Below, one piece after another: positions 1 to 64,000 of a stretch of 64,000 nt of DNA. The DNA is taken from the IMG/VR virus record IMGVR_UViG_2609460125_000009; one strand, 5' to 3'. The notes under the pieces are model-generated. The model made no database searches, was not told where the DNA came from, and was given only the letters and a program-made list of their open reading frames with translations. Source of the stretch: a virus. Lineage: Duplodnaviria; Heunggongvirae; Uroviricota; Caudoviricetes. How positions within the stretch are numbered: the first letter of the stretch is position 1; each line of letters begins with the position of its first letter. Position numbers and translations under genes: made by a program.

Positions 1-1
1 T

Positions 2-301
2 ATCGAACAGAAAACTCTCGAAACTCGTCAGGTTGTCGAGTTTGAATTGTCCAGTGTGTTCGATTTGATGGGGGTGCAACTGCCGTATCGTCAGATCATT
101 AAAAACACCTGCCCGTGGAAATACCGAGGGCCAGAATGCGGCTATACCGGTCCATATTTCGACAAAAATAACCAGCAGACGTCTATGTCTGGTGCGGATT
201 ACTGCACAAAACGTTATGACGCCTGTAATGCGCGTCGGAATTATTTTGCCGACGGTGTGATCCATTTTGGCGGATTTATTGGAGCTACGCGGTATGGGTA
301 A
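2..301 (+). CDS. minor tail protein L-like, C-terminal part (5' end lies outside the window)
   Basis: Frame is open from the window edge to TAA at 299-301. Cys-rich C-terminus (TCPWKYRGPECGY...C...C) is typical of lambda gpL-like tail-tip proteins, and it is followed by K-, I- and J-like genes. Confidence 0.7.
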   Translation: MEQKTLETRQVVEFELSSVFDLMGVQLPYRQIIKNTCPWKYRGPECGYTGPYFDKNNQQTSMSGADYCTKRYDACNARRNYFADGVIHFGGFIGATRYG

Positions 302-1091
302 TAAAGCAATCCCTGAGCTTGGCTCTGACGTTATGCAGCAAATCTATCTCTGCGCCATAAATCGCTACCCTAATGAAGCGTGTGGCTTTCTGGTTAGAAC
401 TAATGGCGACAAATATCGCTTTATGGAAGCGCGGAATGTTTCGGAGAACCCGCAGAACACTTTTGTAATGCACGTTGACGACATTATGGCGGCAGAGGAT
501 GCGGGTGATGTTATCGCAATCTGGCATTCACATACTGATGAATCAGCAGAAGCATCTGATGCCGATCGTGCAGGCTGCGAAGCGACGGAAGTTCCGTGGA
601 TGATTCTGGCTATTCGCAAGAATGTTGAGGGAGATGCCCCTTTCCATTTTAGCGAGATGAATGTGATCACACCTGATGGTTTCGAAATGCCATACCTGGG
701 CAGACCGTATGTATTTGGCGTATTCGATTGCTGGATGTTGTGTCGGGACTATTTGAAGCGTGAGTTTAACGTCGAACTAAACCCGAACGCACACCTGCAT
801 ATTCCATCGTGGTACACCGGCGATAACGACATTCTCGATCAGAACTACCGTAACGAGGGATTGGTGCGTCTTGCGCCCGGAACAGAGCCTCAACGTGGGG
901 ACATCTTCTTTATCCAATACGGGAAAATGCCTGACCACTGCGCGGTTTATATCGGCGATGGAATGATTCTTCATCACCAGATCGACCGCCTAAGTTGTCG
1001 TGCTTATTACGGCGGGATGTATCAGAAACATACGACGCATCACTTGCGTCACAGAGACTTGCTCAAGGGAGATGAGACGTGTCTGAGTTAG
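294..1091 (+). CDS. tail assembly protein K-like (MPN/JAMM metalloprotease domain plus NlpC/P60 domain)
   Basis: ATG at 294 overlaps the stop of the upstream gene (ATGGGTAA). N-terminal HSHTD metal-binding motif; C-terminal Cys/His region (DCW...HCAVYIG...H) consistent with NlpC/P60; position between L-like and I-like genes. Confidence 0.8.
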   Translation: MGNKAIPELGSDVMQQIYLCAINRYPNEACGFLVRTNGDKYRFMEARNVSENPQNTFVMHVDDIMAAEDAGDVIAIWHSHTDESAEASDADRAGCEATEVPWMILAIRKNVEGDAPFHFSEMNVITPDGFEMPYLGRPYVFGVFDCWMLCRDYLKREFNVELNPNAHLHIPSWYTGDNDILDQNYRNEGLVRLAPGTEPQRGDIFFIQYGKMPDHCAVYIGDGMILHHQIDRLSCRAYYGGMYQKHTTHHLRHRDLLKGDETCLS

Positions 1092-1669
1092 TTCATGTGC
1101 AGCTTGGCGGCCCTATGGCCAAACATTTTGGCCGCCACTGGCATCTAAAGGTGCGTAATACAAAACAGGCTCTGGATTTAATTGAGGCCAACAAGCCTGG
1201 GTTTAAAGCATGGATGAAGCGCAATATCAAAACCTATGACAGATACCACATCCAGATCACCAATAAACAGGGCCACAAGTGGTCTGTGGACGAGAGTGAA
1301 TATCAGATGATGGGGCAGTCTGACAATATTGCAAAAATCCGCATTACCCCTGTTCCGCGAGGAAGTGGTGGATCTGCTTTTGGATGGTTTCAGACGGTTG
1401 TTGGAGCAGTATTAATGGTTGCCTCGATATGGGTGCCCGCTCTTGCGCCTCTCGGTTTGTCACTGATGATGGGCGGTATAGCACAAATCATATCTCCGCA
1501 AGCCACTAACGAAAGTGTGAGGCAGGCGGATAACTCGAACTCTTATTACTTTGATGGACCTCAAAACACAACAAACCAGGGGAACCCTGTACAGCTTATC
1601 TATGGCGAGGAAATTTTAGTTGGCTCACAGGTCGTGAGTTCTTCTATCACCATCGACCAGCTTATGTAA
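1079..1669 (+). CDS. tail assembly protein I-like
   Basis: GTG start overlapping the end of the K-like gene; about 196 aa with a hydrophobic C-terminal half; synteny K-I-J as in lambda. Confidence 0.6.
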   Translation: MSELVHVQLGGPMAKHFGRHWHLKVRNTKQALDLIEANKPGFKAWMKRNIKTYDRYHIQITNKQGHKWSVDESEYQMMGQSDNIAKIRITPVPRGSGGSAFGWFQTVVGAVLMVASIWVPALAPLGLSLMMGGIAQIISPQATNESVRQADNSNSYYFDGPQNTTNQGNPVQLIYGEEILVGSQVVSSSITIDQLM

Positions 1670-1680
1670 TCAAGGATTTT

Positions 1681-4600
1681 TTGGACATGGAACAGTTCAA
1701 GAAGAAAAAATTACCGCTTCTTATTGCCGGTGCTGGTGGCAAGAAAAGTAAAAGCTCCAGCCGTACCCCGGTTGAAGCTGATGATACTGTCAATTCTCGT
1801 GCTATGGCAGCCATCCTCGACCTTCTTGGCGAGGGGGTTATCGGTGGCCTGGTAAATGGCGCAAAGTCGATCTTCATCGACGATTTACCGATCTTGAATG
1901 AAGATGGCTCTTCCAACTTCAGCGGTATTACATGGGATTTTCGTGACGGCTCACAAGATCAGACGCCAATGGCTGGTTTTGATTTTGTCGAAACGCCTAA
2001 GTCCGTAAATATTCAGCTTAAAAAAACACACGACGTTACGGTTTCAATCGATAACGATGAAGCTGATCGCGTTCGTGTCATCATGAAATTCCCCTCTTTA
2101 CGTAGCGTTGATAAAAGCTCTGGCGATACAAATGGCACTACGGTGAAGTACAAATTCCAGATCGCCAACGCAGACGCAACATTTTCTGATGTAGTGGCAG
2201 AAGGTGAGAAAAGCGTTGATATCACGCTAACGGCAAAGAAAACCGGCGTGTATTACCGTAGCTATGAGCTGAAACTGCCTAAGCCTGGTCGTGCATACAA
2301 GGTTAGGGTGATTCGTCTTACAGATGATAATAGTAGCCAGTACCTCTACAACGACACATGGGTTGATTCCATCGGTGAGATTGTCGACACGCCAATGAAC
2401 TACCCTAACTCTGCTCTTGTTGGCTTGAAGGTCAATTCAGAGCAGTTTGGTAGCACAATGCCTTCCCGTTCGTATTTGGTGCGCGGTATCAAAATCCGAG
2501 TACCGTCAAACTACAACGAATACACCAATACTTATGTCGGCGTATGGGACGGTACTTTTAAGCTGTTGTCTTCTTCAAACCCTGCGTGGATTCTCTACGA
2601 TTTGCTTACCAATACTCGGTATGGTCTTGGGCAATTTGTGTCGGAATCCATGATTGACCTCGGCCAGCTCTACCAGATTGGTCGATATTGTGACGAAGAG
2701 GTCGATGATGGCTTTGGGGGTAAAGAGAAACGCTTTGCAATCAATACGCAGATCACCAGTCGACAAGACGCATACCGATTAATTCAGGATATTGCCGGTG
2801 CATTCCGCGGCATGGTGTTTTGGGCTGGTGGCATGGTTAACATCATGCAGGATAGCCCATCAGATCCGGTAATGATGTTTACCAACTCCAACGTCAAAGA
2901 TGGACTGTTTACCTATAAAGGTTCTGCGCGTAAAGATCGCCCATCCGTTGCGCTCGTAACCTACAACAACAAGGAGGACGGTTATAAGCAAAACATCGAA
3001 TACGTTGAAGATCAGGACGCAATGCGCCGTTATGGTGAGCGTAAAACAGAAGTCGTAGCATTTGGATGTACAAGCCGAGGCCAGGCTCACCGAGTTGGTT
3101 TGTGGCTTTTGTATACCGCCAGAATGGAGTCGGATGTAATTACATTTACTGCCGGCTTAGACGCCTCATTTCTGATGCCTGGTGAAACCGTTCTGATTCA
3201 GAACAAATATCGTGCAGGTAAACGTAACTCCGGTCGAATTGTGGAGTTTACCAAAAACAGCATCACTCTCGATGCGCCTGTGTCGTTAGCTAAAAGTGGC
3301 AGCTTTATTCGGATATTGAATCAGGAAGGCAAAATCGTTGAACGCGATGTTCTTGAAACTGGCGAAAACATAACAAAGGTTACGTTTTCAAAAGCCCTGT
3401 CGTCAGCGGAAACGCCTGTTTTGAACGGTGTCTGGACAATTACAGAACCAGATCTCGAACCTATGCGCGTTCGCATCGTTAACATCGCGCAGGGGGAAAC
3501 GCCGGGTAGCTTTGACATCACCGCTGTTGAGAACAATCCGTCTAAATATGAGGCAATCGACAATGGCGCAACGCTGATCCCGCAGAATACGACGGTATTG
3601 GACCCAACTTACTCCAAGCCATCTAATCTGCAAATCACTGAAGGGACTTATCTCTCAAGCCCGGGCAACCTGTCAGTAAAACTGACTGCAACATGGGAAG
3701 GAAAATCTCCAGAGTATTGGATCAGTTGGCGACGTTCTGATGAAAACAATGTATCGAACTGGCAATCGGCGCGTGTAACCGAAGAGCAATACGAAATCGT
3801 TAATGTCGCGGAGAATGGACACTACGACTTCCAACTGTATGCGGTTTCATTCAACGGTAAAAAAACAGAGATTATCAGTACCGTTTATCAGGTGTTGGGC
3901 ACAATGACACCGCCGGATGCCCCAACGTCATTAACGGCCGTTGGAGACTATCGTAATGTGATACTGAATTGGGTTAATCCAGATTCGGTAGACCTTGATC
4001 ACATTAATGTTTACGCATCCCAGACCAACAATCTGGATACGGCGAAACTGATCGCAGAGTCTGCAAGCACCACCTTTACACATGCTGGTCTTGGGGATAG
4101 CGAAACGTGGTATTACTGGGTTCGAGCATCGAACAAGCGAGGTATGTTAAGCCCTCCGAACTCAAACTTGGGTACAGAGGCGACAACTCGCGATGTACTG
4201 TCGTTCCTGGCTGGCAAAATTACATCTTCCGAGCTTGGTCAGGCTCTGCTTGAGGACATCAACAGCAAAGCCTCTCAAGAAGCAGTTGACGAGTTAAATG
4301 AGCATATCAACCAGAGCGTCGAATCTTTGGAGGGGGCGGTAAACGACGTTAAGGAAGATATAGCTGAATTAGATAAGCAGTTCAGCGATAACCTCGCGGA
4401 TTTTGAAATAAAATTCAACGAGCGTAGCGATGCTTTGGAGAGCGCGCAAACCGAGCTTAAAGGTGAGGTTTCGGCAACGATCGACAAGGTCAATGAAGCG
4501 TTTGAAAAAATTGATGCTACTGATGCTGCAATTGTTGAAATCGAAAACACCGTATCTGAACACGATAAAGCTCTCGCTAATACAGTCGAGGCAATAAAGG

Positions 4601-6411
4601 CTGCAAGAGATGAAGCGGCGGCTCTTATTGCTAAGGAAAGCGAGGCTCGTGTTGAAGGCGATGCTGCAAACGCTAAACAACTGGAAGTGTTGCAGTCAAC
4701 GGTAGAGGAAAGCTCCGCTGCCGTTGAAGAAATGAAAAAGACGGTTGCAGAGGTCGATCGTGCCAGTGCAGAACTGACTACGAACATTGAGGCGTTAGCC
4801 AAAACAAATATTGACCTGGCTCTTCGTCAAGATGAAGACCAGCACAAGCAGATGGTCAATAACGCGAAGATCGCAACAACACAGAAAACCTTTGCTGATG
4901 ATATGTCTGCAATGGCCACGAAGGTTGAGGAAATTCGCGTAGAAATTGGCGAAGACATTAAGGCCAGTATTCTGGAAGAGTCCACCGCTCGTGCCGATGG
5001 CGATGAAGCGTTGGCAAAGCGTGTCACTCAGCTGCAATCTAAGTTTGAAGGAGATATCAGCGCGGCGATTAGTACAGAGCAGGAGGCTCGCACATCTGCC
5101 GATGAAGCTCTGACGACACAGATCACTCAGCTTGAGTCGAAAGTAAGCAACGATATCGTCGCAGCTATTAAGGAAGAGCAAGAAGCCCGAGCAACGGAAG
5201 ATTCGGCTCTGGCAAGCCAGATCACCCAACTTCAGGCAAAGGTTGATGATGATATTTCTGCTGCAATACGTAGTGAGCAGGAGGCCCGAGCAAGCGGGGA
5301 CTCTGCGTTAGCCAAACAAATAAACCAGCTTCAGTCAAAGGTTGACGGTGATATATCCGCGGCCATCACTCAGGAGCAGGAGGCCAGAGCAAGTGCTGAC
5401 CAGGCGCTCTCACGAGAAATTAACAGCCTGCGAGCACAAACCGGAACTGATATTGCCGCAGCGGTTGCTGTAGAGACAAAAGCAAGGACTGATGCCGATA
5501 GTGCATTGTCTACCCAGATTACGTCTCTTACAGCAAAAGCTAATGATCTCGAGGCGTCTCTTGCCAGAGAAACAACGGCTCGTGCAGATGGTGATACCGC
5601 TTTAACAAAAGAGGTTTCAAGTTTAAAAGCACAGACAGCGAAAGATATTAGTGCGGCCGTTGCAGTTGAAACGCAGGCTCGAACTGATGCTGACTCGGCG
5701 TTGTCGTCTCAGATCACCAAGCTGACCTCTCAATACAAAGAGGATATTAAAGCGGCTGTAGCAACCGAAACGAAAACGCGTACAGAGCAAGATGCTGCAT
5801 TGGCGACTCAAATCACAAACTTAGAGTCTCAAACGGCAGCCAACATTTCCGCGGCGGTAACAACTGAAACGACAGCGAGAACGCAGGCAGATAATGCTCT
5901 GAGTGGGCGAATCGATACTCTGAAAGCAGAGGTGGATGGAAATACCGCGACAATTCAACAGCAGGCAACAGCTATTGCTGATACCAACAAAAAAGTGTCA
6001 ACCGCGTGGACGTTGAAAATGGAAACTTCAACGAGCGGAGGGCAGAAGTATGTTGCCGGTATTGCGCTTGGTATTGACACCACTGGGCTATCTCAGTTTT
6101 TGGTTCAGGCGGACAGGTTTGGTTTGGTCAACTCTGTTAACGGGAAGATCACAACGCCATTTGTTATCGAAAACAGTATCGCCTATATGAATGGAGCGTA
6201 TATCAAGGATGGCACAATCACCAATGCAAAAGTAGGCGATCTGCAATCTACCAATTTTGTTAGCGGTAGATCTGGATGGCGGTTCGGCAAAAATGGAACG
6301 CTTGAGATCAACGGTAATAGCGGGGGTAATGGGCGACTGGTCATAAATGGTCAGCGGATTGACGTTTATGACGATAACAACGTCCTACGAGTAAGAATTG
6401 GCCTTCTGTAA
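1681..6411 (+). CDS. tail tip / central fibre protein, lambda gpJ-like host specificity protein with a long coiled-coil repeat insert
   Basis: 1576-aa ORF directly after the I-like gene; large N-terminal region, then about 1 kb of heptad-like tandem repeats, then a C-terminal distal domain. Confidence 0.85.
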   Translation: MDMEQFKKKKLPLLIAGAGGKKSKSSSRTPVEADDTVNSRAMAAILDLLGEGVIGGLVNGAKSIFIDDLPILNEDGSSNFSGITWDFRDGSQDQTPMAGFDFVETPKSVNIQLKKTHDVTVSIDNDEADRVRVIMKFPSLRSVDKSSGDTNGTTVKYKFQIANADATFSDVVAEGEKSVDITLTAKKTGVYYRSYELKLPKPGRAYKVRVIRLTDDNSSQYLYNDTWVDSIGEIVDTPMNYPNSALVGLKVNSEQFGSTMPSRSYLVRGIKIRVPSNYNEYTNTYVGVWDGTFKLLSSSNPAWILYDLLTNTRYGLGQFVSESMIDLGQLYQIGRYCDEEVDDGFGGKEKRFAINTQITSRQDAYRLIQDIAGAFRGMVFWAGGMVNIMQDSPSDPVMMFTNSNVKDGLFTYKGSARKDRPSVALVTYNNKEDGYKQNIEYVEDQDAMRRYGERKTEVVAFGCTSRGQAHRVGLWLLYTARMESDVITFTAGLDASFLMPGETVLIQNKYRAGKRNSGRIVEFTKNSITLDAPVSLAKSGSFIRILNQEGKIVERDVLETGENITKVTFSKALSSAETPVLNGVWTITEPDLEPMRVRIVNIAQGETPGSFDITAVENNPSKYEAIDNGATLIPQNTTVLDPTYSKPSNLQITEGTYLSSPGNLSVKLTATWEGKSPEYWISWRRSDENNVSNWQSARVTEEQYEIVNVAENGHYDFQLYAVSFNGKKTEIISTVYQVLGTMTPPDAPTSLTAVGDYRNVILNWVNPDSVDLDHINVYASQTNNLDTAKLIAESASTTFTHAGLGDSETWYYWVRASNKRGMLSPPNSNLGTEATTRDVLSFLAGKITSSELGQALLEDINSKASQEAVDELNEHINQSVESLEGAVNDVKEDIAELDKQFSDNLADFEIKFNERSDALESAQTELKGEVSATIDKVNEAFEKIDATDAAIVEIENTVSEHDKALANTVEAIKAARDEAAALIAKESEARVEGDAANAKQLEVLQSTVEESSAAVEEMKKTVAEVDRASAELTTNIEALAKTNIDLALRQDEDQHKQMVNNAKIATTQKTFADDMSAMATKVEEIRVEIGEDIKASILEESTARADGDEALAKRVTQLQSKFEGDISAAISTEQEARTSADEALTTQITQLESKVSNDIVAAIKEEQEARATEDSALASQITQLQAKVDDDISAAIRSEQEARASGDSALAKQINQLQSKVDGDISAAITQEQEARASADQALSREINSLRAQTGTDIAAAVAVETKARTDADSALSTQITSLTAKANDLEASLARETTARADGDTALTKEVSSLKAQTAKDISAAVAVETQARTDADSALSSQITKLTSQYKEDIKAAVATETKTRTEQDAALATQITNLESQTAANISAAVTTETTARTQADNALSGRIDTLKAEVDGNTATIQQQATAIADTNKKVSTAWTLKMETSTSGGQKYVAGIALGIDTTGLSQFLVQADRFGLVNSVNGKITTPFVIENSIAYMNGAYIKDGTITNAKVGDLQSTNFVSGRSGWRFGKNGTLEINGNSGGNGRLVINGQRIDVYDDNNVLRVRIGLL
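4981..5940 (+). repeat. in-frame tandem repeats of about 99 nt (33 aa) coding a coiled coil (EQEARxxADxALxxQIxxLxxKVxxDISAAI) inside the J-like gene
   Basis: Roughly ten recognisable repeat units are visible in the translation and in the nucleotide sequence. Confidence 0.7.
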
Positions 6412-6503
6412 TGTAGAAAAAAATATTTATATCGGTAAAAATAAGTAGGTACATACTTAGTGGTGGGCAAGGATAGCCCACCAAATCAAGGAGCATATTC
6501 AAC

Positions 6504-9500
6504 ATGTGGTACAGGGAAGGTACTATCACATTTACACAGGGCAGCAATACTCTGGTTGGGGCAGGGACAGCCTGGAACGTAACAGCTAATGGTGTGTTGC
6601 CGGGGATGATCGTCATTGGCCCCGACAATAAGCTGTATGAGATCAAGCGCGTAACCAGTGATACGAACATTGTTCTCTCAGAACCTTATACCGGCGAAAC
6701 TCAGTCTGAAGTTCCGTGCCGAATCATTACGACCTATGAAGGCGACTTAACACAGTTTAGCGCGCGCTTTACAGCACTAATGTCGCGTATGTCGGCTGAT
6801 TCCAAGTCCATGCGCAGTTGGTTGACTGCTCTGGATGAGGTGACAATCGAGCGTGAAGACGGTACAGAAGTGACCGTTAAGCCGCTAATGCAGATCGTCA
6901 ACGAGCACAACGAAAACGTTGAGTGGTATAAAAATAACACTGACGCGATTGATGCTGCTGGCGACAAAGCTCGTGAGGCGGCGGCCAGTGCTGCCGCAGC
7001 AGCAGAAAGCGCCAATATCGCTGGAGAAAAAGCCTCTCAAGCGTCTCAAAGTGCATCCGCTGCAGAGTCCTCAAAAAGCGCGGCGGCCACAAGTGCCGGT
7101 GCCGCGAAAACGTCTGAAACGAATGCTGCAGCGTCACAAAAATCTGCAGCCACTTCTGCATCCACCGCGACCACGAAGGCGTCAGAAGCTGCCACCTCAG
7201 CCCGGGATGCGGCGGCCTCAAAAGAGGCAGCGAAATCATCAGAAACGAGCGCAGCCTCGAGCGCCAGTAATGCCGCTTCCTCGGCAACGGCGGCAGGAAA
7301 TTCCGCGAAGGCGGCAAAAACGTCCGAGACGAACGCCAGGTCTTCTGAAACGGCAGCGGGACAGAGCGCCTCGGCTGCGGCAGGCTCAAAAACAGCGGCT
7401 GCGTCGTCTGCCAGTGCCGCGTCAACAAGTGCCGGGCAGGCCTCAGCCAGTGCCACCGCCGCCGGAAAATCGGCAGAAAGTGCCGCATCGTCTGCTTCAA
7501 CAGCCACAACGAAGGCTGGCGAAGCCACTGAACAGGCCAGCGCAGCAGCGAGGTCTGCTTCCGCAGCGAAGACATCCGAAACGAACGCGAAAGCGTCGGA
7601 AACCCGTGCAGAATCCTCAAAAACGGCAGCCGCATCGTCCGCCAGTTCGGCAGCGTCATCGGCATCATCTGCGTCTGCTTCAAAAGATGAGGCGACCAGA
7701 CAGGCGTCAGCAGCGAAGGGCAGCGCCACGACGGCATCCACGAAAGCAACAGAGGCGGCAGGCAGTGCGACGGCAGCATCTCAGAGCAAAACTGCTGCTG
7801 AATCCGCTGCGACCCGTGCGGAAGCTGCTGCTGATCGTGCTGAAGAGATTGCCGGTGCAGTTGCGATGGAAGACGCAAGCCTTACAACTAAAGGTGTTGT
7901 GAAACTTAGCAGTGCTGTCGACAGCACCAGTGAATCGCTGGCCGCAACGCCAAAAGCAGTTAAAGTAGTCAATGACAATGCGAACAGCAGGGTGCCATCT
8001 AACCGAAAAATTAACGGGAAAGCACTGACTGCGGATATCACATTAACGCCGAAAGATATTGGTACTTTAAATTCAATAACGATGTCTTTCTCTGGCGGGG
8101 CCGGGTGGTTCAAACTGGCTACTGTTACAATGCCACAAGCGAGTTCCATCGTTTACATCGCATTGATTGGTGGCGCTGGTTACAACGTCGGCTCCCCACA
8201 TCAGGCAGGCATTTCAGAACTGGTTCTACGAGCAGGCAATGGAAACCCCAAAGGGATTACAGGTGCTTTGTGGAAGCGTACAGCTGTCGGATTAACGAAT
8301 TTCGCCTGGATCAACACATCCGGCGATACATATGATATTTACGTTGAGATTGGCAATTATGCGACTCGTGTAAATATCCATTGGGATTGTACTGCAAATG
8401 CGACAGTTTCTATTTATACATCGCCAACATATTCAGCTAGTAAGCCTTCCAGCGTTACCGATGGTGTTGTTTATACGATGTATAGCACACATCAGAAACC
8501 GACGCCGTTAGATATTGGAGCACTGCCAACAACCGGAGGAACAGTTTCAGGTCCGTTGTCTGTTACTGGTGGGATCACCGGAACATTAAATGGTAATGCA
8601 AGTACAGCAACGAAATTGCAGACGGCAAGATCTATCGGTGGAGTTGGTTTCGACGGTTCTGCAAATATCAACCTTCCAGGTGTAAATACTACGGGTAATC
8701 AGAACACCACTGGTAATGCTGCAACTGCTACAAAACTTCAGACGGCAAGAACTATCGGCGGCGTGAGCTTTGATGGTACTGCGAATATTAATTTGCCAGG
8801 TGTTAATACGACTGGTAATCAGAATACAACGGGCAACGCGGCTACTGCTACGAAGTTGCAGACTGCGCGTACTATCAATGGGGTGTCGTTTGACGGCTCG
8901 GCAAATATTTCCTTGTCGCCAGCAAATATAGGTTGCCCGGCATCTCCTACTGGTTGGTTAACTACAGGAAGTAATGGCGGAGCAATAACAACAGCACAGT
9001 TAGTGACGTTATTGCAAAATAATGGAGCATTTAACACAAAGTCATGGATTGCTCGATGTGCTTGGGCCTATGCCAATAGTGCAACCATACCAAATAGTGA
9101 AACTGGTTGTGGCGTTATTCCATTGGCAGGAGCTGTTATAGAGGTATTTAATAACGGTAGTAGCTCAAACAATTATACGATCCGTATAACAACGGCCACA
9201 ACGACGAGTGTCTCTGGTGCTCTCACTAATGCGGAGTTTATCTATGTATTTAATGGCACAGATTATTCTCCGGGATGGCGAAGAGTATATAACACGAAAA
9301 ACAAACCAACAGCCTCTGATGTCGGTGCATTACCTCTTACCGGTGGTACATTATCTGGAGGTTTGACATCTTCTGGCGAGATCATTTCAAAATATGCAAA
9401 TGGTTTCCGCATTGCTTACGGTAGCTTTGGGTTCTTTATCCGTAATGATGGATCGAACACATATTTCATGCTAACAGCATCAGGAGACACATTAGGTTCA

Positions 9501-12936: not shown

Positions 12937-12937
12937 T

Positions 12938-52234: not shown

Positions 52235-52243
52235 GGAGACTAT

Positions 52244-55202: not shown

Positions 55203-55207
55203 CATAT

Positions 55208-55235
55208 GGTGGGGTATATCCCCACCTTATCTTTG
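55208..55235 (+). terminator. rho-independent terminator
   Basis: GGTGGGG-TATAT-CCCCACC followed by TTATCTTT after the nrdA stop. Confidence 0.65.
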
Positions 55236-55302
55236 ATTTGTAAGCCTTGTTTAAACACATAAGATAACAACTTGTTTAAACACATCAAAAAAGGAAAAAC
55301 AC

Positions 55303-56445: not shown

Positions 56446-56522
56446 ACCGATACAAAGCATTATGTGGCCTGGCAACGCTGGGCCACAATGGATCACAAGA
56501 ATTAAGAAGGAACAAAACTAGC

Positions 56523-57392
56523 ATGAACTTTACCAAACTGACTGACCACCTGAAACTTGCCACCGATCGTCTCATTGGATTTAAGCCAGAACCATATGAG
56601 TTGCATGAAGGTCATGGTGTAGCTACTGAAAGTATTTACAAGATGGTCGATCAGTTTCATGAACTCTTCCAGCATCCGAGACGCGTTATGCCGACACCAG
56701 AGCTGCTTCGTCTCCGTGCAAGCCTGATTCATGAAGAAGCTGTAGTGGAAGGTATTCCAGCCGCAATGAATGGGGATATTGAGCAACTGCTGGATGCAAT
56801 GGCCGACTTTTTATACGTTGGTGTTGGTACGATGGTCGCCATCAAAGGTGGTATTTCTACCGGCATGACCTATTACACGCAGGAACAGAGCATTGATCGC
56901 TTTATGCAGACAATTTTTGTGCCCGGTAACACTGTTTTCGATGATATGGCAATGCCATTTCAGGAAGCTCGTGAGGCGTCATGTATGCTCGAAGAGCTGG
57001 CAGATAAACTTGAGAAGAAGACTGTTAAGGATTCTGAGCTGATTCAGGAACTGCGCCGTGTAATGAACAAAATCTATGTGGCGTGCATGATGACTTATCG
57101 ACTGGCTGATTTCCTCGGTATCAATGTCGTCGAGCTGGTTGGCGAAATTCATCGGTCTAACATGACAAAATTATGGCCTGCTGATGTTGAGGAACGTCGC
57201 CAGGCTGTGGCCAACTGCAAATACGACTCTTCAGATCTGGGATTCCGCCATGCTGATGGCACCGATAAGATGATCGGTTTTCGAATTTCCGATGGAAAGA
57301 TTATGAAGTCTCCAACCTATAGTGATGTCGATTTATCCTCCTTTGTTGAGCAAGCTAAAGCCTCAGCAATGTACGGAATGATCAAAAAATAA
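56523..57392 (+). CDS. hypothetical protein, possibly an all-alpha NTP pyrophosphohydrolase (MazG / dimeric dUTPase-like)
   Basis: RBS AAGGAA; EExxE...D..E-type acidic motifs (LIHEEAVVEG...DIEQLLDAMADF); assignment tentative. Confidence 0.4.
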   Translation: MNFTKLTDHLKLATDRLIGFKPEPYELHEGHGVATESIYKMVDQFHELFQHPRRVMPTPELLRLRASLIHEEAVVEGIPAAMNGDIEQLLDAMADFLYVGVGTMVAIKGGISTGMTYYTQEQSIDRFMQTIFVPGNTVFDDMAMPFQEAREASCMLEELADKLEKKTVKDSELIQELRRVMNKIYVACMMTYRLADFLGINVVELVGEIHRSNMTKLWPADVEERRQAVANCKYDSSDLGFRHADGTDKMIGFRISDGKIMKSPTYSDVDLSSFVEQAKASAMYGMIKK

Positions 57393-57447
57393 TTGTAGGT
57401 AGTTATCTATCTGTGTATATTTAACATGCGTAATAAAACTCTGGAAT

Positions 57448-57476
57448 GACTATTCGTTTTGGTGGCCTATGGCCGC
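57448..57476 (+). terminator. rho-independent terminator
   Basis: TGGTGGCC-TAT-GGCCGCCA followed by TTTTTTT. Confidence 0.7.
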
Positions 57477-57562
57477 CATTTTTTTATCTGTCTGGTCTTG
57501 TTCTCTCAATGAATGTAAACTCACACGATGAATAAGTAATTACTTATCTTTGTGAGGTTTTT

Positions 57563-58666
57563 GTGTCACTCCTTTTGAATCGAGAGCATACGAACGGTCA
57601 GGTAACAAACGCATCGTATGCAAAAGTTATTGAGACGGTGCTTAAAAGCGGCGTGCAGGCTGATGATCGCACAGGCACTGGTACTTTAAGCACCTGCTAC
57701 GTTCCCTCTTACTACATGCTTACTGGTGGGACTGTGCCGCTTATTTCTGGAAAGGCGGTAAATCTTAAGCCACTGCTTGTCGAACTTGAGTGGTATCTGA
57801 AAGGCACGGGCAACATCCAATTTCTCAAGGATAACGGCGTTAAGATTTGGGATGCATGGGCCGATGAGAATGGCGATTTGGGGCCGGTTTACGGTAAGCA
57901 GTGGCGTCGATGGGAAGATACCCGCATCGTGAGCCATAGTGAATATCTGAGCAAGATCGATACTTTCCGTGAACGCGGGTACAAAGTCGAGGGATACCTG
58001 GGTATCAGTGAAGATCGCGTAGTGCTGTCCCGTGAAATCGATCAGCTACAGCGTATTGTCGATACACTGCGCACGAACCCCACCGATCGTCGCATCATGC
58101 TTAACGCATGGAACGTAGGCGAGCTTGAGGATATGAAACTGCCACCTTGCCACTTTGTCTTCTCTTTGTGGAGTCGTGAGCTTGATTTTGAAACCCGTTT
58201 AACGATGGCAACTGACATTGGTCTTCAACACAGTCGCCTCGGTTATGAGTCTATCTACACCAAGATGCTATACGATCTGGAGATGGACGGCAGTGTTACT
58301 GAAACTGAACTGGATGAACTTGGAATCCCCAAACGCATCCTCAACTCCTGCCTCGTACAGCGTAGCGTAGACACTTTTGTTGGTATGCCATTCAATATTG
58401 CTGGCTATGGCATTCTCACTCATTTTCTCGCGAAGATTACGGGTCACATGGCCGGTGCATTTGTACATTTTGGCTTTGACGTGCATTTGTACAACAACCA
58501 CATGGAAGGTGTGTGTGAGCTAATGAAACGACAGGCTCCAGAGCATTCAGATCCGGTCGTTATTTTCCCTCATGAATGGTCTGAGCTGGATGATTTCAAA
58601 TGGGACGATATTCTGATTCTTGGCTATGACCCTCTACCGTGGATCAAGGTTCCAGTGGCGGTGTGA
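57563..58666 (+). CDS. thyA: thymidylate synthase (ThyA-type) with two insertions
   Basis: GTG start after GAGG; motifs DRTGTGT, DLGPVYGKQWR, RRIMLNAWNVGEL, LPPCH, QRSVD...GMPFNIAGY, HLYNNH; about 100 aa longer than the E. coli enzyme because of two inserted segments. Confidence 0.85.
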   Translation: MSLLLNREHTNGQVTNASYAKVIETVLKSGVQADDRTGTGTLSTCYVPSYYMLTGGTVPLISGKAVNLKPLLVELEWYLKGTGNIQFLKDNGVKIWDAWADENGDLGPVYGKQWRRWEDTRIVSHSEYLSKIDTFRERGYKVEGYLGISEDRVVLSREIDQLQRIVDTLRTNPTDRRIMLNAWNVGELEDMKLPPCHFVFSLWSRELDFETRLTMATDIGLQHSRLGYESIYTKMLYDLEMDGSVTETELDELGIPKRILNSCLVQRSVDTFVGMPFNIAGYGILTHFLAKITGHMAGAFVHFGFDVHLYNNHMEGVCELMKRQAPEHSDPVVIFPHEWSELDDFKWDDILILGYDPLPWIKVPVAV

Positions 58667-58667
58667 T

Positions 58668-59081
58668 ATGGCAATAGGTATGTATGTCTTATGCGAAATT
58701 GAAGGTGTGCTGGCAAATACCAGCCATCGTAAATCTGTATCTGACGCGGATGCAGGCCAGCTCATTGCCGGTGATGAACTCATTTTCCCCACCAGCCGTA
58801 TGTTGCGTGGTTTTGCTCGCTCAGGGGCTGAAGTGGTGCTTATCAGTAGCCGCTCTGAAACTCTTGAAGCGCCCACTAAACGATGGTTGAAAGATTTTGG
58901 TGTTGATTACGACTGGCTTCATCTCGTACCGAATGGCGTCAGTTATGAGAAGCATATTAAGCGCACATTAGCGGAGCATAAAGGCGATCTGCTTATCGCT
59001 GCGCTGGTGCACGATCCTCGACTCCGTGCCGCTTTAGCTGACTCTCATCATAGACCGGTCATCTATGAGGTGAGCAAATGA
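58668..59081 (+). CDS. hypothetical protein (possibly a HAD-like small hydrolase)
   Basis: ATG directly after the thyA stop; weak resemblance to HAD motifs; stop overlaps the DHFR start. Confidence 0.35.
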   Translation: MAIGMYVLCEIEGVLANTSHRKSVSDADAGQLIAGDELIFPTSRMLRGFARSGAEVVLISSRSETLEAPTKRWLKDFGVDYDWLHLVPNGVSYEKHIKRTLAEHKGDLLIAALVHDPRLRAALADSHHRPVIYEVSK

Positions 59082-59554
59082 AGATGATAGCTGCTGTTGG
59101 CCGTAACTATGAGATCGGCATAGCGAACGAACTGCCCTGGCGTTGTTCTACCGATCTGAAGCTATTTAAGAGACTCACCAAAAACGCCACTGTCGTTATG
59201 GGGCGTAAAACGATGGAAAGTCTCAAACGCCCTCTTCCAGAGCGTCATAACCTCGTTTTGACGCGCTCTCATGGCTTTGTACCAAATGGATTCTACCCTG
59301 CTGGTGTGGATGATGTGTTGCGATTACCAGAGCCTGTGTGGGTGATTGGCGGGGAACAAATTTACTCGCTATTCATGCCGCATGTTGAAGAGATTTGGCT
59401 CTCCCACATCGGCGTTGATGTGCCAAACGCCGATGCATTCTTCCCGGCAAGCATGATGCGTAATTTAGGCTTTGTGCCTGTTGAAACAGTTTTTACCCAA
59501 CGAGCCAGCGAGGAAGAGCTTGGCTTTTCGCAGATCGTATACAGAAGGTCGTAA
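59078..59554 (+). CDS. folA: dihydrofolate reductase
   Basis: Motifs IAAVGRNYEIGIANELPW, VVMGRKTMESL and VIGGEQIY. Confidence 0.85.
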   Translation: MKMIAAVGRNYEIGIANELPWRCSTDLKLFKRLTKNATVVMGRKTMESLKRPLPERHNLVLTRSHGFVPNGFYPAGVDDVLRLPEPVWVIGGEQIYSLFMPHVEEIWLSHIGVDVPNADAFFPASMMRNLGFVPVETVFTQRASEEELGFSQIVYRRS

Positions 59555-60198
59555 TGGATTACCGGATTGGGATCACTGGTGCTCAGGGCAGTGGGAAAAC
59601 AACCCTGGCAAAATATATCGACAAACATTACGGAATCCCTTACGTGGATGCTGGTGTCGGAAGTTTGATGAGCCGACTCGGTGTTCGAGTAGGTGAGTCT
59701 ATGCCTCTATATGAGCGGCTTCAGATTCAAATGGAAATAGCAAAGCATATAGAGCTACTTACGCGTGGTGTTGAAGGCTTTGTTATCGATCGCACACCTG
59801 CTGATGTTATGGCCTACACGTTGGATTTGGTCGGCCATACCAATGAAGATCGATGTATTGAGTTAGCCCTCGATATCGAAAAGTTTTGCCACAAAACTGC
59901 TATTTCAAACTTTAACGCCATTGCTGGCTTACGCCCGGGAGTCGCTCTCTCAGAGCGAGATTACTTGCGATCACAACGAGCATCATTAGACCGTCTGTAT
60001 GTCGCTCGTATTGATGCGTTGATGTGCGGGGAACTGACAAAAATTCACCTGCATCCGCAAAGGGGGGATCTGCAAACCTTCGTCGTTTCCAACCGATATC
60101 GCACGGTTGAAGCAAGAGCCAGATCAGTGATGAGAATGCTAGATAACGCTGTAGAAAAGATAGAAAACCGGTTCTGTGGCCGAGTGACCGTTCATTAG
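59554..60198 (+). CDS. P-loop nucleotide kinase (dNMP kinase-like)
   Basis: Walker A GAQGSGKTT at the N-terminus; 214 aa; embedded in the nucleotide-metabolism operon. Confidence 0.55.
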   Translation: MDYRIGITGAQGSGKTTLAKYIDKHYGIPYVDAGVGSLMSRLGVRVGESMPLYERLQIQMEIAKHIELLTRGVEGFVIDRTPADVMAYTLDLVGHTNEDRCIELALDIEKFCHKTAISNFNAIAGLRPGVALSERDYLRSQRASLDRLYVARIDALMCGELTKIHLHPQRGDLQTFVVSNRYRTVEARARSVMRMLDNAVEKIENRFCGRVTVH

Positions 60199-60688: not shown

Positions 60689-61483
60689 ATGGGACAACCG
60701 GTAGACATAACAGGTAAACGTTTTGGAAAGTTGGTTGCACTTAAATATTCCGGTATTTCAAACAAACAAGGGCGACTTTGGGATTGCATCTGCGATTGCG
60801 GCAACACCTGCCTGGTTAGTTACGGGAAGCTAAATCACGGGGCGACAATATCGTGTGGCTGTGTCTACAACGCACATCGCCGTAGCGTAAAGCCTCATGG
60901 TATGAGTAAAACGCCAATTTATCGTATATGGCTGGGTATGCGGGAACGATGTGAAAAACCAATCCATCACGCCTATAAGTGGTATGGCGGCCGAGGTATC
61001 AAAGTCTGCGAGCGGTGGCAAATATTTGAAAACTTTTATGCTGACATGGGAGAGCGACCAGAGGGGATGTCTCTTGATCGCAAAGATGTGAATGGTGACT
61101 ACGAACCTGAAAATTGCAGATGGGCGACTTTTGAAGAACAGGCCAATAACACGCGTTCAAACTTAATTTTGGAGCATAAGGGGGAAAAGCTGACTCTCTC
61201 ACAATGGGCTAAAAGAGCCGGGATTCAGACATCAACTCTTCACTATCGAATCAAGAAAGGGTGGCCATTAGATCGCGCGCTTAACGCCAGCGTCGACACG
61301 TATGCCAACCGAGATAGTAAGCGTCTGATCGAGTGTCGCGGCAGAACTCAGCGAATTACCGAATGGGCTAGAGAGGTTGGCTTGACTGCGACCATTATCT
61401 CGCAGCGAATTTTGAGGGGGTGGGATGTTGAAGCTGCCATCTTCACACCGTCCAAACGACCAGTAAAAGGAGATAAAAAGTGA
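60689..61483 (+). CDS. putative HNH-family endonuclease-like DNA-binding protein
   Basis: RBS AGGAG; Cys cluster CICDCGN...CGC and the segment YRIWLGMRERC...YGGRGIKVCERW...LDRKDVNGDYEPENCRWAT typical of phage free-standing HNH-type endonucleases. Confidence 0.45.
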   Translation: MGQPVDITGKRFGKLVALKYSGISNKQGRLWDCICDCGNTCLVSYGKLNHGATISCGCVYNAHRRSVKPHGMSKTPIYRIWLGMRERCEKPIHHAYKWYGGRGIKVCERWQIFENFYADMGERPEGMSLDRKDVNGDYEPENCRWATFEEQANNTRSNLILEHKGEKLTLSQWAKRAGIQTSTLHYRIKKGWPLDRALNASVDTYANRDSKRLIECRGRTQRITEWAREVGLTATIISQRILRGWDVEAAIFTPSKRPVKGDKK

Positions 61484-62028
61484 TTGCTACAGGGGTGGAC
61501 ATCGAATCAACAGGTCTTGATTTCCTCTCAGGCCATAAAATCATTGAAATCGCAATGGTGAAGTACGAAATTGAGACACAGACAATGGTTGATAGTTTTG
61601 TAATGCGGTTCAACCCGCGTCGCAGTATCGATCCGAAAGCGCAAGCGGTACACGGCATCAGTCTTGAAGATTTAGCCGCCGAGCCGTTACTAGCCGATCA
61701 CGCTTCATCTGTCGCTTCGTATCTCTCTTCTTCCGATATTTGGATAGCCCACAACGGCGAAGCGTTCGATATTCCGTTTATTAGGCATGAGCTGAAAAGT
61801 TACGGTTTTTCGCTTCCAGACATCCCATTGATTGACACTCTATTTTCCCTGTGGGCCACAGAAGACGGTAAACGTCCTCGCCTTGAAGAATTGGCCTTCT
61901 CTCTTGGCTTTATATACGATCATGCCAAAGCACATAGTGCCTTATATGACACAAACTTAATGATGCAATGCTTCTTTAAGGCACGTAATAAATACGGATT
62001 TTTTAAATTACCCTCTGAAATTGTGTAA
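61480..62028 (+). CDS. DnaQ-like 3'-5' exonuclease (DEDDh proofreading subunit)
   Basis: GTG start after AAGGAG; Exo I DIESTGL, Exo II HNGEAFDIPF, Exo III HSALYDT. Confidence 0.85.
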   Translation: MIATGVDIESTGLDFLSGHKIIEIAMVKYEIETQTMVDSFVMRFNPRRSIDPKAQAVHGISLEDLAAEPLLADHASSVASYLSSSDIWIAHNGEAFDIPFIRHELKSYGFSLPDIPLIDTLFSLWATEDGKRPRLEELAFSLGFIYDHAKAHSALYDTNLMMQCFFKARNKYGFFKLPSEIV

Positions 62029-63181: not shown

Positions 63182-63775
63182 ATGATTGCAGCCGAAAAAA
63201 TCAAACAGCGAAAGCGCGACAACTCTCTTCGTGACCTCTGGAGAACACCTGACTGGCTGTTTTCTGCCATTCAACGTTATCTTGGAGTGACATTTGATGT
63301 TGACGTTGCCTGCAACAAGGACAATGCAAAGCTGCCTAATTTCATAGGCGTTGAGCGTGATGCTTTGAAATCTGAATGGGGACAGCCAGGTACAATTGCC
63401 TTCCTCAATCCACCCTACTCCAAAATCTCCCCCTGGATTGATGCGGCTATACGTGAGCAGGCTCGCGGAGTTACAACAGTGATGCTAATTCCTCAATCCC
63501 TCGATACAAAGTGGTATGAGCGTGCAACAGAGTGTGCGAATGAGACGATTATTCTGTCTGGTGGCCGCGTAGCGTTTGTCGAGCCTGACGTCAATTTGGG
63601 TCAGGTAGAAGTAAACATCAACCCCGGTGGCAGTATGCTCGTTGTTTTTCGAGGATTTTGTCAGGACGCTGGGCACTCTATAAGCAAGATCCCTTTGGAC
63701 GTCATGAAAAGTCTGGGAGGGTATGATCCTGCGAATGTGATCAGGAAAAAAAGACCATCAAAGAAGGCTGCTTAG
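63182..63775 (+). CDS. DNA N6-adenine methyltransferase (phage Dam-like family)
   Basis: Catalytic motif FLNPPYS (NPPY); 197 aa, consistent with small phage Dam-type methyltransferases. Confidence 0.8.
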   Translation: MIAAEKIKQRKRDNSLRDLWRTPDWLFSAIQRYLGVTFDVDVACNKDNAKLPNFIGVERDALKSEWGQPGTIAFLNPPYSKISPWIDAAIREQARGVTTVMLIPQSLDTKWYERATECANETIILSGGRVAFVEPDVNLGQVEVNINPGGSMLVVFRGFCQDAGHSISKIPLDVMKSLGGYDPANVIRKKRPSKKAA

Positions 63776-63796
63776 TTTGTTCTGGAGTCTGTAATT

Positions 63797-63855
63797 AGCC
63801 TGCTTCTGTATATATAAATAACTACATATTAATTATTAATATACGGAAGCAGGCT
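63797..63855. repeat. large palindromic element, copy 2 (same arms as 16433-16489)
   Basis: AGCCTGCTTCTGTATATAT-loop-ATACGGAAGCAGGCT followed by GTTTT; arms identical to copy 1, loop different. Confidence 0.6.
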
Positions 63856-63961
63856 GTTTTATATCAGAGACTCCCAGACCTGAACACCACTACAGAATCC
63901 ACTAGAACCCCTTCCCAGACGCTTTAAAATCGATTTTATGAACCACTTTAAGGAAACCAAC

Positions 63962-64000
63962 ATGTCATACCCGACTAATGTCGTTGCGCTCGTAGAGAGC
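63962..64000 (+). CDS. start of a further ORF running out of the window
   Basis: ATG preceded by AAGGAAACCAAC; only 13 codons visible. Confidence 0.3.
   Translation, partial: MSYPTNVVALVES

Follow-up and report, generated by a model that had tools for sequence, protein, structure and literature searches.

The 64,000-nucleotide stretch of DNA analysed here (hereafter the window) is very probably a contiguous ~64-kb piece, about 60%, of an Escherichia phage-plasmid of the SSU5_pHCM2 group, a temperate siphovirus with a low-copy circular plasmid prophage. The initial annotation had proposed a phage-plasmid of the SSU5/pHCM2 type from gene content, and this proposal is fully supported by near-identical plasmids and phages, by collinearity, by the lack of a chromosomal copy in 5426 E. 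coli genomes and by the data for phage Cyrano. The components that it had named (virion and lysis genes, a partition pair, a RepA/iteron origin, a toxin-antitoxin pair, a self-encoded replisome, a nucleotide-metabolism set and a CobS/CobT-like pair) were all located and are listed below. The assignment is correct but already known; the element is ordinary and well described, and elements of this type are carried by ~4% of fully sequenced E. coli.

At the nucleotide level, the window is 97-99% identical to ~110-kb non-mobilizable IncFIB plasmids from E. coli, E. marmotae, E. albertii and Shigella. Over 87-89% of window positions 1-25000, the window also matches two Escherichia phages, Cyrano (pLF82) and CMS-2020a, at 96.9-97.1% identity. 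At least 80% of the same segment is covered in 136 complete E. coli genomes, and all 15 matches listed for it in complete E. coli are records of 108-115 kb. For positions 25001-50000, at least 58 plasmids of ~95-125 kb match at 97-99% identity over 92-100% of the segment, and 871 of the 924 matching plasmid records are typed as non-mobilizable. The close relatives, in which identity is 97-99% and gene order is alike, are Cyrano (pLF82, OV696614), pECOH89, NZ_CP023851.1 and the E. marmotae plasmid NZ_CP146383.1. As a plasmid, Cyrano is present at ~5.5 copies per cell; it is induced by ciprofloxacin and makes virions (32-fold over background), as qPCR and TEM revealed (PMC9928086).

Cyrano and the E. 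coli SSU5-like plasmids share with the window the KacT/TacT-like toxin-antitoxin, the ParA pair, the recombinase-repressor module, the RecA intein and the RepA/iterons. The window differs from them in having no 163-184-aa cargo ORF (CYRAN_43) beside the palindrome described below, an additional HNH gene ahead of the exonuclease gene, a fourth tRNA (Tyr) and a different tail fibre tip. In place of CYRAN_30 of Cyrano it has a PD-T4-3-like gene.

The SSU5 supergroup and its SSU5_pHCM2 group were defined by Pfeifer et al. 2021 (PMC7969092). The window has the gene repertoire and synteny of the latter group (PMC7969092), together with its plasmid replication and partition functions (RepA/iterons and a ParA ATPase pair). 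Comparison with both namesakes revealed strict collinearity: SSU5 (NC_018843) shares 50 of the 58 window genes, with order kept and a median amino acid identity of 83%, and pHCM2 (NC_003385) shares 51 of the 58, again in order (medians of 83-84% for the two). The type virion-isolated member, SSU5 from Salmonella, is collinear with the window over its 16.3-78.3 kb, and its DNA is 80.5% identical across 58% of window positions 1-25000. The two have in common the CobT/CobS pair, DnaE, NrdAB, ThyA, DHFR, RepA and ParA. Missing from SSU5, in contrast, are the palindrome, the module of gp49, Grx, recombinase and HTH regulator, the toxin-antitoxin genes (GNAT/TacA), the intein in RecA, and the csp and HNH genes; SSU5 has a single tRNA where the window has four. 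In the Salmonella Typhi plasmid pHCM2 the same gene order is inverted; it resembles the window in its recombinase (84%), Grx (77%), identical palindrome arms and LexA box, whereas GNAT/TacA (at the matching position), the intein and two membrane proteins that follow the fibre gene are missing. Yersinia pestis pMT1/pFra also possesses the recombinase (86%), palindrome and LexA box, but the cargo side of its palindrome is occupied by the caf1 capsule locus.

The virion and lysis content of the window comprises tail and lysis genes, all on the + strand:

1-10661, +, tail module
1-301, +, end of minor tail protein L
267-1091, +, K/C40 peptidase
1079-1669, +, tail assembly protein I
1681-6411, +, J-like tip protein, 1576 aa
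6504-10661, +, tail fibre, 1385 aa
10722-11584, +, two small membrane proteins, homologues of SSU5_023 and SSU5_024, not in pHCM2
11895-13325, +, lysis cassette
11895-12230, +, holin-like protein
12217-12936, +, endolysin
12938-13189, +, Rz i-spanin
13110/13206-13325, +, Rz1-like lipoprotein

Amino acid identity to SSU5 is 91-95% for K and I and 79% for J. Within the fibre, the segment 7028-8764 matches a lambdoid side tail fibre at 95% identity. The tail (L, K, I, J and fibre) and lysis genes are full-length. The 64 kb do not include the head, portal and terminase genes, which the near-identical relatives carry, or the remainder of the immunity region.

The replication and recombination genes are distributed over several blocks, again on the + strand:

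17389-18729, +, DnaB-like helicase (block 17389-22707)
18739-19992, +, DnaG/Toprim-like primase, followed by two conserved genes of no assigned function
21385-22707, +, ATP-dependent DNA ligase
28064-30172, +, CobT-like VWA protein (PF06213/PF11775)
30268-31503, +, CobS-like AAA_5 ATPase
31684-35202, +, DnaE-type DNA polymerase III alpha subunit, 94% identical to SSU5 and pHCM2
37154-37585, +, UvsY-like protein (block 37154-42344)
37703-38731, +, gp32-type SSB
38741-39736, +, 5'-3' flap exonuclease (FEN)
40005-42344, +, RecA/UvsX-like recombinase with a 421-aa LAGLIDADG intein in the P-loop
48270-49355, +, SbcD-like protein (block 48270-52813)
49585-51501, +, SbcC-like protein, followed by one gene of no assigned function
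52244-52813, +, RuvC-like resolvase
61480-62028, +, DnaQ-like 3'-5' exonuclease (RNase_T family)
63182-63775, +, Dam-like N6-adenine DNA methyltransferase

Among these conserved genes the window bears several inserts and a tRNA cluster:

15555-16322, -, GIY-YIG protein matching the single-gene anti-phage defence PD-T4-3, in a variable slot; missing from SSU5, pHCM2 and Cyrano
24295-24992, +, tRNAs Asn(GTT), Tyr(GTA), Thr(TGT) and Ser(TGA)
35481-35899, -, cspG-like cold-shock gene, 83% amino acid identity to K-12 CspG
60689-61483, +, free-standing HNH homing-endonuclease gene inserted directly upstream of the exonuclease gene; missing from SSU5, pHCM2 and the E. marmotae plasmid

The cspG-like gene, which is preceded by a full-length cspA-type thermoregulator 5'UTR (thermosensor leader), is accessory cargo that is found in neither SSU5 nor pHCM2.

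This inventory bears on the possibility that the element is a degenerate SSU5-derived phage-like plasmid, which has kept plasmid replication and lost infectious virions. Loss of virion production has reportedly been proposed for Y. pestis pMT1 and some Klebsiella SSU5-like plasmids. The pMT1 group has the backbone and recombinase in common with the window, whose head and packaging genes fall outside its limits and which harbors selfish inserts (the RecA intein and the HNH gene); non-inducible SSU5-like plasmids have also been reported (PMC8969562). We nonetheless consider degeneration unlikely: the tail, lysis, replication and recombination ORFs are full-length compared with SSU5 and pHCM2, the 97%-identical Cyrano makes virions, and the intein junctions are canonical (Cys1 ... 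His-Asn|Thr), so that RecA is expected to be restored by splicing.

The plasmid side of the phage-plasmid is represented by a replicon, a partition pair and a type II toxin-antitoxin pair:

13358-14195, -, GNAT/TacA type II toxin-antitoxin pair, by domain matches
13358-13879, -, GNAT acetyltransferase toxin, 172 aa (Acetyltransf_1/7/10)
13887-14195, -, TacA/DUF1778 antitoxin, 101 aa (TacA1 PF08681, E 8e-26)
14475-15502, +, partition pair
14475-15143, +, ParA, 222 aa, Walker-type, without N-terminal HTH (AAA_31, MipZ, CbiA and ParA families from residue 2-3)
15143-15502, +, conserved 119-aa ParA partner, N-terminus basic and disordered, C-terminus helical
45138-47290, -, plasmid replicon, RepA plus iterons; relatives typed IncFIB
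45138-45568, both orientations, cluster of ten iterons downstream of repA
45572-46627, -, repA, Rep3-type (WH1/WH2: PF01051 and PF21205)
46673-46789 and 47074-47170, iteron clusters upstream of repA, 21-bp phasing
46902-46910, DnaA box TGTGGATAA, among the DnaA boxes of the replicon region
47212-47269, GATC cluster, six sites in 58 bp

The iteron CTAYAGTGGWT has 23 matches in the window, 19 of them within 45138-47170, compared to 2.5 expected window-wide. With its initiator, flanking iterons and DnaA boxes, the replicon is of the iteron-type Rep3/RepA class (IncFIB, P1-like organisation), and its predicted layout resembles P1 oriR-repA-incA. The 222-aa ParA displays the type Ib trait of a small (~200-230 aa) Walker-type ATPase without an N-terminal HTH; its match to NCBIfam ParA_partition (E 2e-33) falls under the curated cut-off. 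The 119-aa partner is conserved and syntenic in the relatives and has no Pfam, PDB-sequence or fold match; the RelE/ParE label that it bears in the Cyrano record is unsupported as well. A search for a repeat centromere was negative. The GNAT toxin lies immediately 3' of the TacA antitoxin across a 7-bp gap, an arrangement of the GNAT-RHH (TacAT/KacAT) type; the pair occurs in neither SSU5 nor pHCM2 and is annotated as KacT in Cyrano.

A tyrosine recombinase and its surroundings form a separate module:

25214-25564, +, Gp49-family protein (block 25214-25806)
25561-25806, +, glutaredoxin, GrxA-family
25886-25918, no strand, putative recombinase core site, AATGATTCCATAC-CTACTAT-GTATGGAATCATT, a 33-bp 13-7-13 palindrome, unique in the window
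25971-25990, +, perfect LexA (SOS) box TACTGTTTACTTATACAGTA, 27 bp ahead of the recombinase start codon
26017-27120, +, tyrosine recombinase, 367 aa, Phage_integrase domain
27115-27501, -, HTH transcriptional regulator, 'putative repressor' in the Cyrano annotation

The recombinase module is present in pHCM2 (84% identity) and missing from SSU5. In relatives whose recombinases are 59% and 48% identical, the palindrome arms are invariant or symmetrically changed, and the 7-bp spacer varies freely. The putative site thus has the build of a simple Cre/loxP-type site, with inverted arms of ~13 bp on either side of a 6-8-bp spacer, present once per replicon and apparently co-evolving with its recombinase. 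The earlier description of a recombinase with a lox-like site stands for the enzyme and the 13-7-13 palindrome, with "lox-like" as a functional analogy only. Membership of the Cre lineage was rejected: against PDB sequences the recombinase matched neither Cre nor any solved structure at E<=0.01, its domain is the generic Phage_integrase only, and its identity to other phage integrases is <30%. The LexA box, from which SOS induction of the recombinase is predicted, is kept in pHCM2, pMT1 and the Klebsiella and Enterobacter relatives. No sigma-70 promoter upstream of the recombinase passed the scan. Three further copies of the palindrome arm, isolated and conserved, are spread across ~9 kb.

A Phage_integrase-family protein with an adjoining HTH regulator, together with a PHROG 'excisionase and transcriptional regulator' match at 36051-36650, might be taken for the signature of an integrative temperate prophage of the chromosome, the recombinase being its integrase and the palindrome part of attP. 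This reading is already contradicted by the data, and its probability is close to nil. The 33-bp site was found in 252 of the 5426 complete E. coli genomes, at 504 plasmid places and no chromosomal one, with one site per plasmid; element-type nrdAB is likewise on none of the chromosomes, and the near-full-length matches are all plasmid-sized records. Moreover, the window carries a complete RepA/iteron/par/toxin-antitoxin plasmid kit, the plain symmetric palindrome resembles lox, FRT and dif, unlike an att site with its arm-type sites, and homologous recombinase-palindrome pairs occur on non-phage Pantoea megaplasmids. In the relatives, the site and high-identity nrdAB are on plasmids only, which fits the extrachromosomal prophage state of a phage-plasmid.

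In the slot beside the palindrome, which is empty here, Cyrano and pHCM2 have a strongly expressed moron, Klebsiella/Enterobacter have YafO and colicin-immunity genes, and Y. pestis pMT1 has the F1-capsule locus caf1. Because the module (LexA box, palindrome and arm copies) sits at the main cargo hot spot of the element, it may be conceived as a platform, triggered by SOS, for the capture or exchange of accessory genes in phage-plasmids of the SSU5 type, beyond a Cre-like dimer resolvase, but we regard such a role as very improbable.

The nucleotide-supply block (52887-60198) is composed of six genes:

52887-55202, +, NrdA
55303-56445, +, NrdB
56523-57392, +, MazG-like NTP pyrophosphohydrolase
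57563-58666, +, ThyA
59078-59554, +, DHFR
59554-60198, +, P-loop kinase-like protein

In the initial annotation, NrdA, NrdB and glutaredoxin had been regarded as almost host-identical and as recently captured from an enterobacterial host. Both claims fail. Amino acid identity to E. coli K-12 is 63% for NrdA, 60% for NrdB and 49% for Grx (versus GrxA). At the DNA level, nrdAB aligns to each of the 5426 E. coli chromosomes at ~68% identity over 56-65% of its length, and these 5426 chromosomal places represent one host nrdAB per genome. Matches of at least 95% amount to 201 records, all consistent with plasmid records. The three proteins are 86-88% identical to those of SSU5/pHCM2, versus the backbone median of 83-84%; being as conserved as the backbone, they are ancestral to the group. 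The NrdA relatives listed, from 99% down to 66% identity, occur in Salmonella, Klebsiella, Enterobacter, Citrobacter, Xenorhabdus and Morganellaceae, with the longest contigs mostly ~100-112 kb, a pattern that fits a phage-plasmid-specific clade. The nucleotide-metabolism genes date back to the ancestor of the entire SSU5 supergroup, and the ribonucleotide-reductase genes are old and vertically inherited.

Judging from the families of these proteins, RepA would bind the iterons flanking repA and host DnaA the DnaA boxes, thereby firing a P1-oriR-like origin, and the downstream iterons would handcuff origins and so limit copy number. Segregation of the plasmid copies would fall to the small ParA together with the 119-aa protein, the GNAT/TacA pair would kill plasmid-losing cells, and the recombinase, presumably SOS-induced via its LexA box, would most likely resolve plasmid multimers at the single palindrome. 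Lytic replication would depend on the element's own replisome (DnaE, DnaQ-like proofreader, DnaB-like helicase, DnaG-like primase, gp32-type SSB, FEN and ligase), a T4-style recombination set (RecA/UvsX-like, UvsY-like, SbcCD and RuvC-like) and a dNTP factory (NrdAB, Grx, ThyA, DHFR and MazG), with the tRNAs, tail genes and holin/endolysin/spanin cassette probably serving the same phase.

The working logic is like that of P1: in both, iterons flank repA, the origin bears DnaA boxes and clustered GATC sites, a tyrosine recombinase gene adjoins one symmetric recombination site with 13-bp arms (Cre/loxP in P1), and active partition (ParAB in P1) is combined with an addiction module. The differences are also clear: the window recombinase has no detectable sequence kinship to Cre, the spacer is 7 bp as opposed to 8 bp in loxP, ParA is small and type Ib-like as opposed to the large type Ia protein of P1, and the element is a siphovirus with a large self-encoded replisome, whereas P1 is a myovirus without one.

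Since SSU5/pHCM2-type phage-plasmids are a defined group, the classification adds no novelty; elements 97-99% identical are already public and partly characterised by experiment. The recombinase/palindrome/LexA-box module represents a compact, uncharacterised recombinase/site pair that is easy to test. The correction regarding the Nrd proteins matters where NrdAB-type genes serve as markers for recent host-to-phage transfer. The practical value lies in correct annotation, as a phage-plasmid and neither a conjugative plasmid nor an integrated prophage, with cargo for defence (the PD-T4-3-like gene), addiction (the GNAT/TacA pair) and stress (the csp gene).

Over window positions 1-25000, the phages CMS-2020a and Cyrano (Escherichia phage pLF82, OV696614) matched at 96.9-97.1% identity with 87-89% coverage in a megablast search of phage records, and Salmonella phage SSU5 (NC_018843) at 80.5% identity over 58%. 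No record identical to the window was found among the database matches, the best over this part being NZ_CP023851.1 (coverage 100%, identity 98.1%). Positions 25001-50000 were covered to at least 80%, at 97-99% identity, by 58 plasmid records from E. coli, E. marmotae, E. albertii and Shigella, mostly 95-125 kb in size; among the 924 plasmid records matching this part, 871 are typed as non-mobilizable. For comparison of gene order, 58 curated window proteins were searched by tblastn against the complete sequences of SSU5 and the Salmonella Typhi plasmid pHCM2 (NC_003385). Homologues were found for 50 of the 58 in SSU5 and for 51 in pHCM2, with a median amino acid identity of 83-84%. The order is strictly collinear with SSU5 from 16.3 to 78.3 kb, and it is kept in pHCM2 too, but inverted and crossing the pHCM2 coordinate origin. 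These plasmid and phage matches, together with the collinearity, bear out the initial annotation, which had placed the DNA in a phage-plasmid of the SSU5/pHCM2 type. That reading is right in the main, and the classification, also correct, is already known, the SSU5_pHCM2 group having been defined inside the SSU5 supergroup (PMC7969092).

SSU5 differs from the window in lacking the GNAT/TacA pair, the 15555-16322 gene, the free-standing HNH gene and the gp49/Grx/recombinase/regulator module. Comparison of SSU5 41776-42761 with window 24400-28060 shows that this module, including the HTH "putative repressor" gene, is lacking as a whole; it is kept in the E. coli, pHCM2, Yersinia pestis pMT1 and Klebsiella relatives. 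SSU5 has been described as virulent. In pHCM2 the recombinase module is present, but the toxin-antitoxin pair, two post-fibre membrane proteins and the 36051-36650 gene are missing.

The distribution in complete genomes is that of an extrachromosomal element. Window 1-25000 is covered to at least 80% in 136 of 5426 complete E. coli genomes, and among the matches listed all 15 lie on records of 108-115 kb. A 33-bp palindrome (25886-25918) and its flanks occur in 252 of the 5426 genomes (4.6%), at 504 places; every one of these is on a plasmid, with no chromosomal copy among them. There are two places per record because both strands of one palindrome match. Cyrano is a siphovirus with a tail of ~259 nm, maintained at 5.5 copies per cell and induced by ciprofloxacin, with a virion yield 32-fold over background (PMC9928086).

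Each of the gene classes listed in the initial annotation was identified in the window, including toxin-antitoxin, ParA, replicon and recombinase genes and the following:

Tail proteins K, I, J and fibre
Lysis cassette: holin-like protein, transglycosylase-type endolysin, Rz spanin and Rz1-like lipoprotein with an ISGC lipobox
CobT (both Pfam CobT domains) and CobS-like AAA_5 ATPase
Replisome: DnaE, DnaB-like helicase, ATP-dependent ligase, gp32-type SSB and FEN; also DHFR
DnaG/Toprim-like primase
DnaQ-like exonuclease of the RNase_T family
Nucleotide genes: ThyA, NrdA and NrdB
24295-24992, tRNA genes Asn, Tyr, Thr and Ser

The window thus carries four tRNA genes, compared to three in Cyrano and one in SSU5; tRNA-Ser (87 nt, 24906-24992) is an ARAGORN call which lies below the Rfam gathering score. 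In the N-terminal third of the tail fibre gene (1385 aa), the segment 7028-8764 shares 95% identity with the side tail fibre of lambdoid phage phi458 and 88-90% with many further lambdoid phages and prophages, which indicates that host-range modules have been swapped by mosaic exchange. Most chromosomal matches of window 1-25000 in E. coli are due to this lambdoid-like segment.

The proposal that NrdA, NrdB and glutaredoxin (Grx) are almost host-identical, and hence recently captured from an enterobacterial host, proved wrong. Identity to the E. coli K-12 proteins is just 63% for NrdA, 60% for NrdB and 49% for Grx, and each of the 5426 E. coli chromosomes aligns to nrdAB DNA with an identity of only about 68%, over 56-65% of the gene length. 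Matches of at least 95% number 201 records, consistent with the 204 plasmid places found. NrdA is 86% and NrdB 88-89% identical to the SSU5 and pHCM2 proteins, slightly above the backbone median. An exact-peptide NrdA search of genome contigs returned three loci only (phage-plasmid-sized Kluyvera contigs and one fragment); being too narrow to sample chromosomal NrdA, it was superseded by a search of 5.8 billion proteins, in which NrdA relatives span 99% to 66% identity, are named from Salmonella, Klebsiella, Enterobacter, Citrobacter, Raoultella, Xenorhabdus, Morganella and Moellerella, and have longest contigs of mostly about 100-112 kb. In view of the low host identity, the backbone-like identity to SSU5 and pHCM2 and the contig sizes of the relatives, the NrdA and NrdB genes have been resident in the SSU5 supergroup for a long time.

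The window gene that really looks host-derived, as accessory cargo, is a cspG-like cold-shock gene (35481-35899, - strand). Its product shares 83% amino acid identity with K-12 CspG, its leader is a full-length cspA thermoregulator 5'UTR (Rfam RF01766, 185.7 bits), and it is absent in SSU5 and pHCM2. The RecA/UvsX-like recombinase (40005-42344, 779 aa) contains a 421-aa LAGLIDADG intein in its P-loop/Walker A motif (GPPSAGK/C...SHN/T), whereas the RecA proteins of SSU5 and pHCM2 (358 aa) are intein-free; PGAP wrongly annotates the entire gene as a homing endonuclease. Between a conserved gene of unknown function and the DnaQ-like exonuclease gene lies a free-standing HNH homing-endonuclease gene (60689-61483, 264 aa), which SSU5, pHCM2 and the E. 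marmotae plasmid NZ_CP146383.1 do not have. The GIY-YIG protein encoded at 15555-16322 (- strand) matches PD-T4-3, a single-gene anti-phage defence system, in PADLOC (E 1.5e-23); its gene occupies a variable slot adjoining the par genes, which holds other genes in relatives. For 36051-36899 (- strand), the HicB/HicA labels of the Cyrano record found no support in Pfam, NCBIfam or PDB searches; a 199-aa protein of this region carries the PHROGs label "excisionase and transcriptional regulator".

The plasmid maintenance functions center on a RepA with Rep3 WH1 and WH2 domains, for which a PDB sequence search gave no significant match. Matches to the iteron core CTAYAGTGGWT number 23 in the window (2.5 expected), 19 of them inside 45138-47170; iterons upstream of repA form two clusters with 21-bp phasing, and ten copies in both orientations lie downstream. 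A perfect DnaA box occupies 46902-46910, and GATC occurs six times within 58 bp (47212-47269). The origin region consists of two similar modules (46665-46914 and 47066-47290) about 381 bp apart, each with five iterons, short repeats containing GATC and a DnaA or DnaA-like box, the distal one having the tighter GATC cluster. The layout is oriR-repA-incA, as in P1-type and IncFIB replicons. ParA (222 aa) is accompanied by a conserved 119-aa partner (15143-15502, + strand) with a basic disordered N-terminus and a helical C-terminus, which has no family, PDB-sequence or fold match in Pfam, PDB sequence and Foldseek (versus PDB) searches. Since its AlphaFold model, built from 12 sequences, reaches a pLDDT of 63 only and gives no Foldseek match in the PDB, an RHH fold is a mere guess from the sequence pattern. 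The RelE/ParE label of this protein in the Cyrano record is unsupported by Pfam, NCBIfam and PDB searches, and a search of the surroundings of parA revealed no repeat centromere. The toxin-antitoxin pair comprises GNAT domains and TacA1 (E 8e-26), and is annotated as KacT in Cyrano.

Between grx and the palindrome (25807-25885) lies a cargo hot spot, empty in the window and variable in content among relatives. Cyrano, the E. marmotae plasmid and pHCM2 carry an ORF of 163-184 aa there (40% identical between the latter two), with a reported expression of 723 times the local background (PMC9928086). Klebsiella has YafO toxin and colicin-immunity genes in this slot, Enterobacter has a YafO toxin gene, and Y. 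pestis pMT1 has caf1, the F1-capsule gene. The window and the E. marmotae plasmid cease to be homologous exactly at the palindrome edge, but we rejected this as proof of a cassette junction: the break is not clean, because three relatives share a conserved TTCAAAAA motif that lies about 15 bp to the left of it, and the difference is an indel rather than different cassettes, because pHCM2 and E. marmotae have homologous versions of the missing ORF.

The adjacent tyrosine recombinase (26017-27120, + strand; 367 aa) has a Phage_integrase domain, shares less than 30% identity with ordinary phage integrases, and has no solved-structure relative in a PDB sequence search. At least 80% of it is covered in about 940 plasmid records, at 86% identity in Y. 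pestis pMT1 and 46-52% in Pantoea megaplasmids. The palindrome, AATGATTCCATAC-CTACTAT-GTATGGAATCATT, is present once in the window, about 100 bp 5' of the recombinase gene. Seven relatives were aligned at this site. Among the close ones the arms are unchanged; where the recombinase is 59% identical they shift symmetrically to TGTGATTCCATAC / GTATGGAATCACA, and at 48% identity they read TGTGACTCCAGAC / GTCTGGAGTCATA, again symmetric except for one outermost base. The sequence of the 7-bp spacer changes freely. Such a pattern is the hallmark of a protein-binding inverted repeat in co-evolution with the recombinase. The palindrome might instead be an operator of the neighbouring HTH regulator (27115-27501, - strand), a reading disfavoured because Pantoea plasmids retain the recombinase and palindrome without the regulator. 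For the recombinase acting at the palindrome, multimer resolution analogous to Cre/loxP is the most likely function, and we hold it to be somewhat probable.

The exact 12-mer arm, in the extended form ATGATTCCATACATC, recurs at three isolated positions, against a chance expectation of about 0.008 in the window:

23079-23093, + strand, arm copy at the start codon of a 50-aa ORF
24091-24105, + strand, arm copy in the intergenic region 5' of the tRNAs
31934-31948 (arm at 31937), - strand, arm copy within dnaE

Cyrano, the E. marmotae plasmid, pHCM2 and SSU5 have all three at the corresponding places, with divergent flanks; one SSU5 copy has a single mismatch, and the complete SSU5 genome contains no further copies. 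An additional copy in pHCM2, with one mismatch, lies within the int (recombinase) gene. In a Klebsiella relative whose palindrome has GTG-type arms, the isolated copy likewise reads GTGATTCCATACATC, with the same A-to-G change as the arms; a Pantoea plasmid has no isolated copy within 20 kb on either side. The isolated copies may be accessory recombinase sites.

A perfect LexA box, TACTGTTTACTTATACAGTA (TACTGT-N8-ACAGTA, 25971-25990), lies 27 bp 5' of the recombinase start codon. It is the sole match with up to two mismatches in the 64-kb window, and is conserved in pHCM2, Y. pestis pMT1 and the Klebsiella and Enterobacter relatives. A consensus scan flagged no promoter 5' of the gene; TTGATC-17-TAATAT, which overlaps the box, matches at merely 8 of 12 positions. 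Given a box both perfect and conserved, the recombinase gene is predicted to be under SOS control, of which we found no mention in the literature searched. Only this SOS-boxed recombinase/palindrome module, together with the isolated arm copies, is worth an experiment.
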